A DNA stretch of 64,000 bases. It comes from Nitrospirales bacterium (GTDB lineage: Bacteria; Nitrospirota; Nitrospiria; Nitrospirales; UBA8639). Within the stretch, counting starts at the first letter, position 1. Every line of letters starts with the position of its first letter. The notes under the pieces were generated by a model. That model was given only the letters and a program-made list of their open reading frames with translations. It did not search any database and had not been told where the DNA came from. The translations under genes were made by a program, and so were the position numbers. Location of the stretch: contig OY729426.1 in the NCBI GenBank assembly GCA_963422365.1, positions 128,001 to 192,000 of the forward strand, written 5' to 3'. This document shows positions 20,318-62,778 of the stretch, in pieces.

Positions 20318-23300
20318 TCCCACCCGCAACGTCTCTTGCCGACGTTCGCTACCGATTAGCGAGTCACTCGACTCCCACCTTTTTTTTATCCTTGAACAAT
20401 AGCCGCGCTTCATTTTTCCCGACCTCGTAGTTTTTTCTCATAAACAGTAATGGTATTCTTAACGTCCCTATGGGAAAGACCGACAAATATACCGCTTCAA
20501 ATATCAACGACCCTGCCCGTAACCGCGCCTTACGCCTTATACAATACCTTCAAGCATTAGCTGACCTTCGTACGAAAATCATTCGAGACGTGAAAGACTA
20601 TGAGCATATTCTCTGGTTGCACGAAATTCCTCGTGAAAAGGAGTGTTTCACACAAGCATGGGGCCCCAATATGATGATCGTGAGCCAGATATCTGGATTG
20701 AAGTTCAAAAGAGAGACGAACCAGTTCGACCGAGGGTTCCGAAAGTCTGCGACACATGGGTGAACCAAGAAACGTTAAAAAATACTGAGAACTTCCCTGA
20801 ACTCTTCCCTACAATCAGCGTTGCAGTGGAAGAGCAAGATCAAAAAGAAGACACCTTGTCGCCAGCGTACGAAAAACGAAACCTGGAAGATTATCCCGAC
20901 GTTCGGAAAGCTTGGGACCGATACCGGAAAAATGAGTGGCTGCCCTGGATGGAATCACATCGCGATTGGGCCACTGTACAAAATGTCTACACCGAACTGT
21001 TCACCATCTATCAAGGACAAAAGCGTCTAGGCGAAGAATATGAATTGCTCGTGGGCATTGGTCTTCTGACCTGGCAAACGCCTTCGGGGCACACCGTCCG
21101 CCGACATCTTGTCACAGCAAAAGCCAGCTTGGGTTTCAAATCCACACTCGGCAAATTCGAAGTTATTCCAGACCCTGACGGCGCAAAACTCTCTGCCGAA
21201 TTAGATATGCTGGATGCCACAGAGCAACCTCTCCACGCTCAACAGTCGGCAATGGAAGGGTTGCGTTCCGCGGATGACAATCCTTGGGATCGCGCTTCTG
21301 TTGACGCCGTCCTCCATGCACTCGCAAAAAAGTTGGACGCTCTTGGCGAATACCACCACGCATCGCTGAAACCACGTCAATCGAAGGCTGACAAAAAACC
21401 CTTTGTCGAATTCGCTCCGGCACTGATTGTCCGAAAACGATCCTTAAAAGGACTTCAGGAAACCCTAGCTAAAATGTGTTCCCAAATAAGCAAGGGCGGT
21501 GAACTGCCACATGCATTTCTGGATCTCGCTGAAGGCAGAATAGACCCTGGAATAAGCGGGCCAGACACATCCGGTACGAATGGCACAGACAAAACGGAAC
21601 CACCAATCTATTTCCCCAAACCTTCTAATGATGAGCAACGCCGAATCATCAAGACCCTTGGTTCAACCAGCGGCGTGTTGGTACAAGGCCCCCCTGGAAC
21701 AGGGAAGTCTCACACCATCGCCAATCTTATCTGTCATCTCCTCGCAACAGGACAAAAAGTGTTGGTCACTGCCCAAACCCCAAGGGCCTTGGACATTCTG
21801 CACAATCATCTTCCAGAAAAGATTCGTCCTTTGTGTATTAGTCTCTTGGGGAGTGAAAGTAAAGAACAACGTGCGCTCGAGGCGAGTGTGAGCGGGATTT
21901 TAGATCGGCAAACGGAATGGAGTGAATCACACGCGACCTCAGAAGTGACCCGACTCAAGAAAAAACTCCATCAAGTACGGAAGGAAAAGGCTGAAACCGA
22001 ATTCAGACTCCGATCGATTCGAGAATCCGAAACGCGTGAACAGTCCATCCTAGATGGAGCCTATCACGGAACTGCAGCGAACATTGCACGACAACTCAAC
22101 CAGGAATCGACTGAATATGATTGGCTGACCGATCCCATACGGCACGACCAAGAAATGCCAATCGCTCCCAGGGACCTAGAAAAGCTGAGACAGGAATTAA
22201 CCAATTTCAGCCCCGAGTTAGAAGCGGAACTGAAATTGAGCATGCCTGACCCTAAACAAGACTGTATCGACGTGGAAAGATTTAAGGCACTTGTTCAACA
22301 AGAAATCGAAACAAGAGAAAGCCTGGAATCCGATCAGGCATTCTTGAATTCCCCAAGAGATACGATCCAACTGGTAGACATTCAGCACGTCCATCGAATG
22401 ATCGAGGCTATGGAATCACTGATCGCTGAGGTTCAAAGCATCAAAGCACTGCCCATGCCGTGGATCGAGTCAGCTATCCATGAGATGTTATCGGGCAATG
22501 ATCGACCCTGGAAGGAACGTCGCCGCGTCTCTGACGATCACTTGAGAGGGTTAAGCGAACGGGCGGAAAAAATTGATCGGCAAAAACTGGATGCTCCGGG
22601 CAGTCTTGACCGACAAAAGCTGTTAAACGATGCAAAGACTCTCAAGCAACATTTCGACCATGGTGGAACAATCCGGTGGCTGTGGTTCCTCAATAAGAAG
22701 ATCGTCAAAAACAACGAAAATCTCATCAGACATGTTCACCTTGATGGCCATCCGTGCGATACATCCGGAGTGCTAGAGAAGCTCATTGAATATCTCTCCG
22801 TAGAACAAGCCATTGAATACGTTTGGAATATATGGAAGGGAAAAGCTGACCGGCGGGAAGGCTCTTTTCTCATGCAGGTAGTGGAACTCGACGCACTCTT
22901 GCATGCCCTGACTCGGGTTATCGGTCTTGAGGATCCACTGGAGCATGCCAAAGCTCGCGTCCGACAGGATCCAAGAATACCCGAACCGGTGTGGCATGAC
23001 TTGGATGCTCTCAGGCAATTCCTCAATACCTGCCGATTTGTCATTCAAAAACGTAAACTGGAAAGCGTTCAAGAAGCATTGAGCGAGGGTATCTCCGGCA
23101 TTCGAGCCTTTACCCATCGTGAATCATGCCATCCTTCGGCACAAGAAGCTCTGGATTCCATGCGAAGCCGCGATGTGGAGGCCTATGAGAACATTGTGCG
23201 CCGACTTGTCGAACTTCAGCAATGGTCAGAACGGGTAGCGTGGACAGAATCGACCCTCGACCGCCTTAAGCCCATTGCACCGATGTTCGCAAAAGCATTG

Positions 23301-25082
23301 AAGGAATCCTGCCGAGACGAACAGTGGATGAACCGAATTCGTTCAGTGGAACAGGCTTGGAAGTGGACACGAGCATATTCTTGGCTTCGTGACTTTCTCA
23401 ATGCTAATGACGTTCCTGGCTTAGAACGGTGAGCAAAACAACTCGAGGAAGATGAGAGGGATACGCTGGCTACCCTTGCTGAAATGCAGGCCTGGACATT
23501 CTGCTTCACGCGGTTACAGGAGGAACATCGAAGACATCTGGTTGGATGGCAACAGGCAATAAAAAGAATCGGGAAAGGCACTGGCAAGAGTGCTCCAAGA
23601 CATCGCCGAGACGCGCAACAACATTTGAATAAATGTCGGGAGGCCATTCCTGCCTGGGTCATGCCTCTTCATCGACTGTGGGATACCGTCGATCCGTCAC
23701 CTGGCATGTTCGACGCGATTATCGTCGACGAAGCATCCCAATGCGGGCCGGATTCCCTCCCATTGATGTATCTGGGGAAAAAGCTCTTGGTTGTCGGAGA
23801 CGATCAGCAAATCAGCCCTGAGGCCGTAGGCATTGATGACAATAGTCGGCGCCAACTTATACAGGAACATTTGCATGACTTTGAACATGCTGATTCATTT
23901 GATATGGAAAGCAGTTTATTTGCCCATGGATGTCGCCGCTTTGGCAATCGGATTGTGTTACGAGAACATTTTCGGTGTATGCCCGAAATTATTCGATTCA
24001 GTAACGACCTGTGTTATCACGACACGCCACTTATCCCTCTCCGCCAGTATCCACCGGACCGACTGGAACCACTAACCATTATTCACGTGCCGAGTGGATA
24101 TAGGGAAGGGGATGGTGCAAGGGCCATGAACCGTCCCGAGGCCGAAGCCCTTGTGAAACGGGTCATCCAATGTTGTCAGGACGAACGTTACAACGAAAAA
24201 ACCATGGGTGTCATCACGCTTCAAGGCACGGCACAGGCTCAGATCATTGAAAGTATGTTGGTGAAAGAATTGGGGGCGGAGGAGATGGAAAAGCGAAGAC
24301 TGATTTGCGGCACTCCTTCCCATTTTCAAGGGGATGAACGAGAGATTATCTTTCTTTCCATGGTCGCCGCTCCCAACGAACGTATTGGACCTTTGACGAC
24401 AGAATCGTACAAAAGACGGTTCAACGTGGCGGCGAGTCGAGCCAAAGATCAAATGTGGTTATTCCATACGGCAACGCGAAACGACCTGATTGACGCCTGT
24501 CTACGAAAGCAGCTGCTTGAATTTTTCAACAACCCAGAAAGCCAAATTACTCAGGCACTTGGAGAAGAAGCCGAGCAATTGAGAGAAAAAGCACGCTTTG
24601 CTAACCGTGGAATTGAGAAACCACCAAATCCGTATGACAGTTGGTTTGAAGTAGACGTATGCCTAGCCATCGCTGCAAGAGGGTATCGGATCGTGCCGCA
24701 ATATCCGATTGCGGGAAAACACATCGATCTGGTCGTTGAGGGCAACAAATCGCAACTTGCCGTTGAATGCGACGGCGATCATTGGCATGGTGCAGACAAA
24801 CATCAAGAGGACATGGAACGACAAAGAAAGCTGGAGCGTGCGGGATGGAGGTTCTACCGAATTCGTGGAAGCTCCTTTAATGCCAATCCGGAAGCGGCCA
24901 TGGAAAGTCTGTGGACTCTGCTTCGGGAGCTGGAAATTTTCCCCGTCGGCTCTTCCCGCGATGCATCAGAGGAAACACCCAAGCCTGAAGAACAGCCTCA
25001 TCACAATCCTTTCGAGGAGTCGACACCCACCCAACCCGTTGCTGGACCTACTATCGAGGCAACGGTGCAGGAGGGGCACCCA

Positions 25083-25188
25083 GTAGAAAGTCAATCACTA
25101 CACGGAACAGTTTTAGATCTGGCCGGCAGCGCAGTGGCCGCGGTGGTGACACTGGTAGAAAGTCAATCACTACACGGAACAGTTTTAG
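25083..25188 (+). repeat. Perfect 34-bp direct repeat flanking a 38-bp unique spacer (CRISPR-like unit)
   Basis: GTAGAAAGTCAATCACTACACGGAACAGTTTTAG at 25083-25116 and 25155-25188. Confidence 0.9.
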
Positions 25189-25244
25189 GCTCCGCACCCA
25201 CCCCACAGGATGAGCAGACAGAAAACTTCGCTTCGGCAGAAGCT

Positions 25245-25409
25245 CTCTCGCTGACTTCTCGTCAAAAAGAAATTCTCCGACTCGTGGCCCAAGGTCACAC
25301 AAATCGAGAAATCGGCGAACAACTTGATATCAGCGTCCGGACGGTTGAAGTTCACCGATTTAATCTGATGCGGCGCCTCCGCGTGCGAAACGTAGCCCAA
25401 CTTCTCAGA
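25245..25409 (+). repeat. Near-copy of the LuxR HTH coding segment at 30671-30835
   Basis: Manual alignment: 150/165 nt and 53/55 aa identical. Confidence 0.92.
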
Positions 25410-26362
25410 AAAATGACTGATGAAGAAATTGAGTTCGATGGATAACAGGCACCTTACACCCATTGGCCAAAAGCCGTTCTTCCTGACCCTCAGTCCGCTA
25501 TCATTGATGAAATCATAAGCGGTCTCCTCGCAATCATTTCAGTGAAAGGACCAATCGTCTGTCACAGGGCTTATTTTTTGTATGCCGGAGCTGTCGATCC
25601 GCCAATAATGAAAGTGGTAAGACAAATCCGATCAACTTTTGATAAAGCAATTCGTCAAGCTTTACGACGGGGACTCATTGAAGGAACAGATGAACGCGGA
25701 AACCGTGAATGGTATTGCCTGATCGTTCGTAAGGTAGGCACGCCACCTGTGGTGGTGCGCAAACGAGGAAACAGGGACTTTGATGAGATTCCTCCTTCGG
25801 AATTGAGGGCGTTAATGAATGACCTTTATCGCCAAAATCTCAACCAAAACGATGATCAACTTCTTCAATCTGTAAGGGTCCGATATGATTTCGGACGGAT
25901 GACGTCTGATATGAGAAAGAAATTGTTGAGGATGAGAGGATGAAGCAGCAATATTTTCAATAAAGGTTCTCTGGCAAGGCGGTATCATCAAGTGGATGTG
26001 CCGACATTCGTCAACGACGTACGCACTCATAGACGGAAGACCGGTTGAATGGCGTCAAATTTTTCTTTGACTTCGGGATGTATTTTCTCCGGCAGCATCA
26101 CGGCAGCGATGTCATTGAAGCGGGTCTAAGGAAAGCCATGTAATCCGGCCGCATCCAGAATCGGCGGAATGACTGCTGTTCTCGCCTTACGTTGTTGCCT
26201 ATACGCGTCGACCAAAGGATTGGGCTTTAGGAAAAGGCAGGCGTGAAGGTCTGCTCCAGATAGGCCAACGTATCTTTCCTGGCTTCTGCCGAAAAAGCCC
26301 CGGCACCTACTTCCTTCTCAATAAACCGTTCCAGTGCTCTCGGGTGTACGAGCAAGGGCTAT

Positions 26363-27184
26363 TTACGCACGGCCATTGACTGACCAGAGATGGGAACAGC
26401 CAGAGGTATCCCGTTGGCTCCAGCGATAGATTGCATCACTGTAACCGTGGAGGATGGCCACTGTCTGATCACGAACCTGTCGAAATGTCTCTTACGACTC
26501 ATCCGTCAGCGGATCTGCTGACGGAATATCATTGAGTACAACGACTCTTTGCGCGGCTGGACGTGTTTCTTTCAGTTCCATCCATGTGAACGACACAAAC
26601 TTCGCCGTTTGTGACAAAGGGCTTCGAATGAGTTTGACGAGCCGCTCGGCTTTCCGTGGCAAGGGAATGACGAAGTCGATGGGATGTTCAACCGTGCCTC
26701 CTGGTATGGTTACATTTGCAGTATAAAGAACCTTCCGTTGATCAAGAAACTCGCCAACCAGTTCAAAAAAGTCAGTGAAAGTATAGGGAACGTGACTCAT
26801 CCAGAGATCATGAAGCCGCAAAACAGCAGTGAGTAAAAAATACGCGCGCGGAGAAAGGTTCGTCGCAGACGCAGCAGCTTCCAAACGCCCATTGGCAAGA
26901 CGAACGGCACAGCCGGCCCTTGCACGTTCGACCAAAGCTTGACGCCGCTCAGAATCCTCAATCTTGATCCCCAAGCATTGGAGGCATTCAATGGTGTCGC
27001 CGTTATCATGAAGAATATCATCTCCGTGATGGTGTTCGACATAGATCTGAATGCCGTCATGAAATGGATCCAGAAATGGTGTACTCAGTACGGAGACATC
27101 CCCTCGTTGGAAAGTCTTGAACCTGTCACGAAGCCAAGTGAGATAATCTTTGGCCAGATCTGGCTGTAGAAATGCGGGCGTCAT
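26363..27184 (-). pseudogene. DUF1828/DUF1829-like protein with a premature TAA at 26492-26494
   Basis: STPFLDPFHDGIQIYV...LHDNG, G.TVEHPIDFVIP..ERLVK; the frame continues after the stop as ETFRQVRDQTVAILHGYSDAIYRWSQRD. Confidence 0.7.
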
Positions 27185-27599
27185 TTCAAGTCCATATTCA
27201 CTTGGATGCCGTTTGCGAAACTGGCTTTGATGATTGTAAGAAAATGTTCTAGAGTGACAGAAGGGTCCCTAAAGTCACACCAAGTTACTGGCTCTGCCCA
27301 GGCTAATCCAAAGCCCTCCCGAACGACATGCAAGTGTGATTGATTGAGAATTTCCGTTCCATCCGGAGTAGGGCGATAGGGACTGTTGTCGAGGCGAAAG
27401 AGGCCAATACCGCGGTCCTTGGTTCGACAGTGCAGCCGAATTCCAAATGGATTCCGTTTCATCGAAAGGATACATTGAAGTCCTTTATCCGTTCTTGCAA
27501 TCTATGAGTTCATTTTCCATCCTCTCTGCTTGCCAGTTTAGAGGATCAGATCTTGTTGCTTCTTTGGCGATCTCGATCTGCTTGCGCTTGCGTTAACAT
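27181..27599 (-). pseudogene. DUF6978-like protein, 5' part disrupted
   Basis: MLTQAQADR start at 27599, then frameshift/stop; RLD...PDG.EI...HLH..REGFG..WA motif; 4-bp overlap with the downstream gene. Confidence 0.6.
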
Positions 27600-27760
27600 T
27601 CGTTCAAATTTTTCACAATCAGTAACTCGTTCCCTCGGTCGTCGATCACTTTCACGGCAATCTGCTTGTGCTCACCAGCCTGGAATTGGCGCACTCATGG
27701 TGCCTGAGAGATGATCCAAGACGCTTTCTTCACAATCACCCCTCAAAGCCTTTCGAATGA
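27593..27760 (-). pseudogene. 3' remnant of a Mod-like site-specific DNA methyltransferase
   Basis: Translates as ...LDHLSGTMSAP/FQAGEHKQIAVKVIDDRGNELLIVKNL, a C-terminal signature I recognise from N4/N6 (type III Mod-like) methylases. Confidence 0.6.
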
Positions 27761-27869
27761 AAAGTGGCTTGGTACAGCCATGGAGTTTTGACCTCTTTTG
27801 GATCAAAACAAAGCCCTGACGGTGGGAATAAAACAGAATAATAACTCACACTGTAAAGAAATTCTTTCA

Positions 27870-30604: not shown

Positions 30605-30895
30605 ATGGCCACAGTCAAGCCAAGTCATCGAGAAATCAAAGGAAACTCGAAAGAACAAACTGAAGAGACGCTCTCTCTGACTGCTCGTCAAAAAGAAATT
30701 CTTCGACTCGTCGCCCAAGGTCATACGAATCGGGAAATCGGAGAACAACTGGATATCAGCGTCCGGACGGTTGAAGTTCACCGGTTTAATCTGATGCGAC
30801 GACTCCACGTGCGAAACGTGGCCCAGCTTCTCAGACAAGGGATGCGCTTACGCCTCATCCCGAAAAGTACCGTTCCCACAAGTAAAGCCCCCTAA
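30605..30895 (+). CDS. Small stand-alone LuxR-family HTH regulator
   Basis: LTARQKEILRLVAQGHTNREIGEQLDISVRTVEVHRFNLMRRL. Confidence 0.88.
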   Translation: MATVKPSHREIKGNSKEQTEETLSLTARQKEILRLVAQGHTNREIGEQLDISVRTVEVHRFNLMRRLHVRNVAQLLRQGMRLRLIPKSTVPTSKAP

Positions 30896-62052: not shown

Positions 62053-62778
62053 ATGGCGAACCCCGAACATATCACCGTACTCAAACAAGGGCCACGCCAG
62101 TGGAATGCCTTTCGAAAGAACAATCCTTCAATGCGTCCCGATGTATCGAGTGCCGATCTTTCGAGATGGGATTTATCGGAAGCCGACCTGACCGGAGCCA
62201 ATTTAAACGACGCGAATCTGAGTCACGCCAACCTTTCGCATGCTCGTCTTGACGGAGCCAATTTAGGGGAAGCCAATCTTCTCAATGCGAAGATGACGGG
62301 AGCGAAGGGGCACCACACCAATCTGAGTGAAGCCGACATCGGCAACGCCGATCTCAGCAAGGCCGACTTTCGGCACAGCACGTTCTTGAAAGCCGATCTG
62401 TCCGGGGCCAATCTGTCGAACGCCACGCTTTCACATGCGAACTTCCATTTTGCCAAGTTAGAACATAGCATCCTCAATGCGTCGGATCTCAGGCATGCCA
62501 AGCTGCGGGAGGCCTCTCTCACTCACGCGCAAATGGAACACGCTCAATTAGACCATGCCGATCTGGCCCATGCCTCGCTCGCCCAATCGAATCTTCGCCA
62601 TGCCTCCTTCCAGAACACCTCACTCATTCAAACCAACCTTGAACAGGCGAATATAGAAGATGCGCAACATCTCGGGCATAAGCAACTCGCCAAAACGCGA
62701 AGCCTTGTCCATACGATCGCAGACCAAGCTCTTCTTGACAAAGTCGCCATCGCCAACCCTAAGTTGTTCACCACTTAG
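62053..62778 (+). CDS. Pentapeptide-repeat protein
   Basis: Tandem A(D/N)Lxx repeats. Confidence 0.92.
   Translation: MANPEHITVLKQGPRQWNAFRKNNPSMRPDVSSADLSRWDLSEADLTGANLNDANLSHANLSHARLDGANLGEANLLNAKMTGAKGHHTNLSEADIGNADLSKADFRHSTFLKADLSGANLSNATLSHANFHFAKLEHSILNASDLRHAKLREASLTHAQMEHAQLDHADLAHASLAQSNLRHASFQNTSLIQTNLEQANIEDAQHLGHKQLAKTRSLVHTIADQALLDKVAIANPKLFTT

Follow-up and report, generated by a model that had tools for sequence, protein, structure and literature searches.

How single-protein helicase-nuclease defences sense or find their targets is an open question, and the locus described here raises it in a particular form: why should a predicted anti-phage enzyme carry, within its reading frame, a near-copy of a host transcription regulator? 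The window, by which we mean the whole 64-kb stretch of DNA that was analysed, lies on the single 2.5-Mb contig of a Nitrospirales genome (G000). It contains a captured LuxR/GerE helix-turn-helix (HTH; 25245-25409, + strand) and, downstream, a stand-alone luxR gene (30605-30895, + strand) whose 96-aa product consists of a basic N-terminal tail and an HTH. Sequence comparison within the window reproduced the copy as originally predicted: 25245-25409 and 30671-30835 are identical at 150 of 165 nucleotides and 53 of 55 amino acids, and of the 15 codons that differ 13 are synonymous and two are not (S5A, R46H). The pair forms the longest direct repeat of the window (175 nt, 89%), and Pfam GerE matches both copies, the captured HTH with 66.9 bits against a cut-off of 23.5, although the copy ends part-way through the last helix. 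Its predicted placement, in frame between a Vsr-like (MTES_1575) nuclease and a 165-aa C-terminal domain, is likewise borne out by the open reading frames and Pfam. The EQTE motif that had been taken as a shared flank of the capture is a coincidence: it precedes the HTH by seven residues in the fusion and by two in LuxR, and as found in the fusion it gives a gap-free alignment with the linker that the helicase itself has in two related genomes (G053 and G003).

The fused HTH is closer to one LuxR paralog (LuxR-A, 53/55) than to the other (paralog B, 30/55), and in a DNA tree it nests inside the genus clade of paralog-A orthologs. This gene is conserved across the genus and was matched in all 24 of the other genus genomes drawn. 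The supposition that the domain came from a host luxR ortholog therefore stands, but the specific neighbouring gene is not the nearest, since the stand-alone copies of G024 (152/165) and of G001 and G005 (151/165) are closer to the captured HTH than is G000's own luxR (150/165); the gene at 30605-30895 is best regarded as the donor's ortholog. We note that two small stand-alone LuxR-type HTH proteins of this genome (30605-30895 and G000:C1:1496802-1496975) have basic N-terminal tails and are strongly conserved across the Nitrospirales, and that in another genome five LuxR-type HTH matches lie within 57 kb, perhaps on a mobile island (G204:C1:834215-890837). A search of viral contigs for close relatives of LuxR-A found none.

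The gene that carries the HTH runs on the + strand. It begins with an N-terminal piece (20470-20763), an ORF that aligns with the N-terminal ends of the intact orthologs in G003 and G053, and continues with the first half of a UPF1-like SF1 helicase (20643-23432; Pfam AAA_11), containing the Walker A motif and a long helical insert, and the second half (23433-24644; Pfam AAA_12), in which DEASQ, FQGDER and RFNVAASRA are intact. The nearest solved structures of this motor are UPF1, NAM7, SEN1 and Aquarius. There follow the Vsr-like REase (24645-24920; PF18741, E 3.8e-29), a linker with a 72-nt in-frame insertion made of an exact 34-nt direct repeat flanking 38 nt (25083-25188), the HTH and an ancestral C-terminal domain of DUF3320 type, described as a winged helix (25446-25943). 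This last assignment runs only through homology to the DUF3320-bearing tail of P0054 (37% identical, E 4e-30), with no direct Pfam DUF3320 match; the domain itself is also supported by a match to the PADLOC candidate PDC-S37 and is in frame in G053. The 38 GC-rich nucleotides within the linker repeat have no match elsewhere in the genome or in the fetched loci; the repeat may have been left behind by an insertion that has since gone.

In this genome the gene is broken by three lesions that leave the catalytic motifs intact: a frameshift near 20669, a TGA (23430-23432) in place of an Arg of both orthologs, and a TAA (25443-25445) that lies 11 codons past the HTH and severs the C-terminal domain. 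We considered the TAA as a native end, given that P0002, P0003 and a G003 remnant stop there, and rejected it, as G053, P0001 and HTH-less homologs read through; it is most likely a nonsense change. The stops are not sequencing errors, nor is the fusion a misassembly, a possibility that the original prediction had singled out for a check of the junctions. Contigs of run X1, which may be the source sample, tile the whole stretch, both junctions included, without differences; those of run X5, which belongs to a different study, likewise show no differences over the right junction and the two stop codons; and the intact G053 ortholog has the same in-frame HTH at the same locus. A strain about 98% alike (X6) has neither the frameshift (2 nt fewer at 20669) nor the 72-nt linker insertion, and bears instead an in-frame 111-nt deletion that removes most of the HTH. 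The 44 listed differences between X6 and G000 in the coding region, part of 102 in that X6 piece, divide into 32 non-synonymous and 12 synonymous, a near-neutral ratio. Given the lesions, the deletion in X6 and this ratio, the gene is probably relaxed or dead in this species.

The gene occupies a variable slot between bioB and an ABC permease gene (20318-27869). Both flanking genes are held by 19 of the 22 loci examined, and among these the slot is nearly empty in 11, holds a type III methyltransferase locus in three, this helicase in two, an E1/E2/JAB cluster in one and other genes in two. The slot is a defence hotspot of the genus: G002, G014 and G018 carry type III methyltransferase loci there, G001 an MBL-like/JAB/E1/E2 cluster, G053 a ParDE-like pair with the helicase, and G003 an insertion sequence with the helicase. 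In G000 it also holds, on the - strand, a DUF6978 and DUF1828/DUF1829 gene pair (26492-27462; PADLOC candidate PDC-M24A/B), which lies between two remnants (26018-26352 and 27603-27848), 79-85% identical, of the type III restriction-modification locus of G002, G014 and G018. Elsewhere in the window, degenerate repeats at 62189-62442 recur at a spacing divisible by 15 nt, a pattern typical of pentapeptide-repeat genes. Across the family, helicase matches at E 1e-20 or better occur in 11 of 115 genomes, and close copies (76-80%) are found once in G053 and twice in G003. The slot, this patchy spread and homology to Prometheus and Hhe together suggest a single-gene anti-phage role for the helicase-nuclease.

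The broken copy is not the only fusion. The ortholog of G053 (L024:7380-13028), 1,882 aa long and uninterrupted, sits at the matching place in the gene order bioB, helicase, ABC permease, luxR; its reading frame runs through the HTH and a duplicated linker and on into the C-terminal domain. P0001, P0002 and P0003 are intact fusions too, although P0001, whose tail is 95% identical to that of G053, is not an independent case. Intact homologs with the same domain, which the original prediction had called for, thus exist. In G003 one helicase copy has a different tail, and the other is trailed by a displaced, non-coding remnant of linker and HTH; this remnant was the single match of a junction pattern scan in genome contigs, the same scan of metagenome contigs giving none. 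The left junction is common to all three fused DNA copies without gaps and the right junction to two, and a state at codon 50 is present in all three and in none of 21 stand-alone genes, which argues for one capture. With weak support, an unconstrained DNA tree of 26 sequences placed the G000 copy apart from the other two; monophyly of the three was not rejected (AU p 0.09). In the protein tree of HTHs, the type-A domains (those from paralog A, as type B are those from paralog B) are followed by 12 non-homologous residues, and the type-A grouping seen there was disregarded.

Recent duplication or conversion from the adjacent luxR is not supported, because neither fusion is closest to the luxR of its own genome: the fused copy of G053 matches its own luxR at 141/165, among the lowest values. 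An older gene conversion is possible. Between G000 and G053 the dS of the helicase (0.35-0.61) resembles that of five neighbouring housekeeping genes (0.40-0.73), which fits descent at this locus. A tree built from 216 helicase cores puts the type-A fusions in one clade of 12 members (support 0.999), of which they make up four, the two deepest branches among them; the sister group has the C-terminal domain without the HTH. The HTH was hence gained at the base of the clade and then repeatedly lost or displaced, being lost from the protein in eight of the 12 members. Read together, these comparisons indicate a single capture from luxR paralog A, older than the split of G000 and G053.

Protein-level selection, as originally claimed, has acted on the fused copy itself. 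Between G000 and G053 the fused HTH differs at 19 of 45 synonymous and 3 of 120 non-synonymous sites (dS 0.62, dN/dS 0.04, Fisher p 6e-10), against dN/dS of 0.17-0.20 in the helicase catalytic core, 0.42 in the C-terminal domain and 0.06 in stand-alone luxR. The non-coding HTH remnant of G003 serves as an internal control and is relaxed (dN/dS 0.37 versus G053), with seven private amino-acid codons against none and one in the two fusions. Among P0001-P0003 the HTH is 95-98% identical while the core is 87-93%. The combination named beforehand as speaking against the prediction, namely intact homologs devoid of captured domains and a fusion branch devoid of purifying selection, is thus not what the data contain.

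Such captures extend well beyond this locus. Seven proteins (P0016, P0017, P0021, P0023, P0122, P0267 and P0269), of which P0023 bears the name Nitrospira, have the HTH of the conserved paralog B, the six compared matching paralog B at 36-45 of 55 positions and paralog A at 25-32. The distance between their helicases and those of type A is about 1.75 substitutions per site, and P0122 stands on a separate branch, so that the LuxR captures number at least two, perhaps three, independent events. The helicase family is large, with over 30,000 matches in one homolog search. Of 264 nuclease-bearing homologs, 220 have tails over 60 aa, which cluster into 75 short winged-helix-like, 73 DUF3320-like, 17 GreA C-terminal-like and 28 mixed tails, the rest being small groups or singletons. 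A Pfam and NCBIfam scan of 43 selected proteins identified sigma70 regions 1.1-4 (P0378, P0380), regions 2-4 (P0246), region 4 alone (P0405), regions 1.1-1.2 (P0408) and an N-terminal region 1.1 (P0187), as well as a sigma54 DNA-binding domain (P0460), PcrA/UvrD Tudor domains (P0171, P0370), a GreA C-terminal domain (P0040), a topoisomerase zinc ribbon (P0436) and WD40 (P0239). The sigma fusions, to which P0379 and P0377 also belong, comprise whole or partial sigma70 in eight proteins on three branches and the sigma54 domain in one, counts that, like those of the LuxR fusions, are inflated by searches seeded with those domains and refer to protein sequences. In a 393-protein tree the proteins with added domains fall on separate branches. 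The original prediction had asked whether other host-derived domains occupy this tail slot; sigma70, sigma54, GreA C-terminal and PcrA-Tudor domains do, in what is apparently a family-wide recruitment of transcription-machinery domains that has not been described before. The literature searched, consisting of main texts mostly outside subscription journals, contained no report that this helicase family captures LuxR, sigma or GreA domains from its hosts, and the available portions of PMC11090510, PMC12839542 and 10.64898/2026.01.04.697583 describe no such host-domain fusions.

Other additions were also seen. A helical module, some 130-190 aa in size, forms an ORF by itself in G003 (L012:8409-8990) or is present in one or two copies in the helicase tails of P0002-P0008, P0013 and P0085; a 193-aa query gave no Pfam match and, in a search for close relatives, no viral-contig relative, and its Atlas leads were weak (best 0.83). 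P0415, P0418, P0420, P0038 and P0213 show a DNA-ligase-like N-terminal piece (PF22745), an extra N-terminal domain (PF26340), a long methyltransferase-like tail, a receiver-like tail and a topoisomerase zinc ribbon.

What, then, might the captured domain do? The explanation that we favour, and hold tentatively, is that the luxR-A HTH, captured once into a swappable tail and kept under purifying selection in intact relatives, docks the predicted anti-phage enzyme there on promoters or the transcription machinery. The UPF1-like motor would act on nascent RNA, R-loops or DNA at transcription complexes, and the tail would serve as an address tag, for operator DNA in the case of LuxR and for RNA polymerase or promoters in the case of the other domains; swapping the tag would alter where the enzyme waits and which phages get stopped. 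The pseudogene of this genome performs none of these steps, and the proposal applies to its intact relatives. We favour docking because the ancestral tail is a winged helix, because the transcription tails read promoter DNA or dock polymerase, and because the type-A copy is held to the standard of the host gene; the nearest solved motors (UPF1, SEN1, Aquarius) and the location in a defence slot also count for it. GreA C-terminal and PcrA-Tudor domains are RNA-polymerase-docking modules. The usual winged-helix tail has been proposed to recognise invading DNA (available portion of PMC3710099), and Prometheus is described as related to R-loop-acting enzymes (available portion of PMC13700489). Several points weigh against docking. 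In the type-A fusions the last helix is missing its distal half, the part through which GerE/NarL-type domains dimerise, and they may therefore bind operators weakly. In type B the recognition-helix core KTVEAHRAN is unchanged in all seven fusions, which favours docking, but the whole recognition helix is not clearly better kept than the remainder of the domain (10 of 105 cells changed, versus 33 of 217 elsewhere). Some tails (WD40, the topoisomerase zinc ribbon, a probable methyltransferase piece) are unrelated to transcription, and a nuclease aimed at host operators would be risky and of unclear benefit.

A second reading, close behind docking although we think it somewhat unlikely, makes the captured domain an integrated decoy: a phage protein directed against the host regulator, or against a sigma factor, would also bind or dislodge the copy and thereby activate the helicase-nuclease. 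The recurrence of LuxR captures on distant helicase branches, and of sigma captures as counted above, fits this idea, as does the rapid gain, loss and swapping of tails, which suits a sensor slot. Relative to the enzyme core, fused sigma70 diverges faster, type-A LuxR slower and type B in a mixed fashion; fused sigma70 regions 2-4 stand at 46-65% where the core is at 73-74%, and some have lost the conserved region-2 tryptophans, as expected if their native function is dispensable. T4 AsiA binds sigma70 region 4. In LasR, a LuxR-type regulator, the DNA-binding domain is bound by the phage protein Aqs1 (available portion of PMC13043044). Against the decoy, type A is under purifying selection and shows nothing suggestive of an arms race, no phage protein against these Nitrospirales regulators is known, the GreA and Tudor modules are not known phage targets, and the usual tail of the family is a nucleic-acid-binding fold. 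The two readings may also combine, with the enzyme dormant and tethered by its HTH up to the point where a phage protein displaces it.

It is improbable, in our estimation, that the HTH merely adds non-specific DNA affinity, as winged-helix tails may do, with the donor set by the proximity of luxR-A. The helicase does lie within about 6 kb of luxR-A in G000, G053 and G003, stand-alone LuxR-A is itself a small HTH with a basic tail, and winged-helix and DUF3320-like tails make up 148 of the 220 clustered; yet the fused copy is as constrained as the host gene and more tightly so than the catalytic core, which exceeds what a generic binder should require, and GreA and Tudor tails are not DNA-binding domains. 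Least credible is a neutral passenger, in which a tolerant tail gathers fragments of neighbouring genes and conservation reflects donor history or conversion from the adjacent luxR. In its favour, the gene looks dead in this species, X6 has lost 111 nt of the HTH, the fused G000 copy resembles stand-alone luxR genes (150-152/165) more than it does fused G053 (143/165), and the sigma70 domains of other fusions are eroded and truncated. Against it, for each fused copy there is a luxR closer than the one in the same genome, the shared junctions and codon-50 state indicate one capture followed by 19 silent and 3 replacement changes, and the G003 non-coding remnant displays what relaxation looks like.

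The interest of the system lies in one capture with a traceable donor, defined junctions and measurable selection, set within a family that has time and again acquired near-exact segments of host transcription proteins. Relatives that naturally form matched pairs, one with a tail and one lacking it, make the docking and decoy ideas directly testable, and the sigma70 fusions offer a route via known phage anti-sigma proteins. Were the tails bait, they would predict which host proteins are attacked by phages in uncultured lineages such as the Nitrospirales. At its broadest, and we offer this as a speculation more doubtful than not, widespread single-protein helicase-nucleases would run decoys in the style of plant NLRs, with host transcription hubs (two LuxR, sigma70, sigma54, GreA, PcrA Tudor) as bait for phage takeover proteins and the tail catalogue listing phage targets host by host.

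The original prediction took the locus as the best candidate for an undescribed system, and as regards the enzyme this does not hold: judged by sequence, it is a PDC-S37-like relative of Prometheus and Hhe and a member of neither, and would at most work in their manner. PDC-S37, a phage-defence candidate named in no paper found in the literature searched, was the best PADLOC model in all six helicase queries, for stretches that are partial and with no cut-off given; for P0001 the model spans helicase, nuclease and C-terminal domain (E 5.8e-67), but it omits the captured HTH, and the moderate scores indicate a relative rather than a tight member. Prometheus, as far as the available portion of PMC13700489 describes it, likewise joins an SF1 helicase, an MTES_1575 nuclease and a DUF3320-type tail in one protein (ProA), and has variants with an extra C-terminal WYL domain. 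The G053 ortholog, however, scores 225.6 bits against the ProA model NF058533, below its cut-off of 1500, its residues 1-367 gave no Pfam match to the ProA feature DUF4011 at E 0.1, and the tails here hold near-copies of host transcription proteins. The giant Hhe and MTES_1575 proteins, in the available portion of PMC3710099, share the SF1 helicase, the Vsr-like REase and the winged-helix tail without a methylase; the match to the Hhe model NF042953 is 143.9 bits, below its cut-off of 2000, and the enzyme here has no DUF4011, HEPN or transglutaminase match. CnuH of type III-B CoCoNuT systems also combines a UPF1-like helicase, a large helical insert and a fused Vsr-like nuclease (PMC11090510, available portion), but McrB/McrC (CnuB/CnuC) are absent from the slot ORFs of G000, G053 and G003, where the gene stands alone.

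In its logic of a fixed enzyme with an exchangeable accessory domain, the family resembles Menshen NsnA, bacterial Schlafen and plant NLRs such as RRS1-WRKY. As far as the available portions of these sources go, sensor swapping is described for Menshen, whose sensors include sigma70 region 1.1-like folds (PMC12065111), and for bacterial Schlafen (PMC13434031), and the integrated-decoy idea has been proposed as a hypothesis for bNACHT11 (PMC11702601). An integrated decoy implies a host domain copied into an immune protein; here the copying is observed and the immune role is predicted. Where Menshen, Schlafen and bNACHT11 offer, in those accounts, fold resemblance or hypothesis, the helicase-nuclease carries a copy that is 95% identical to an identified host gene and can be dated.
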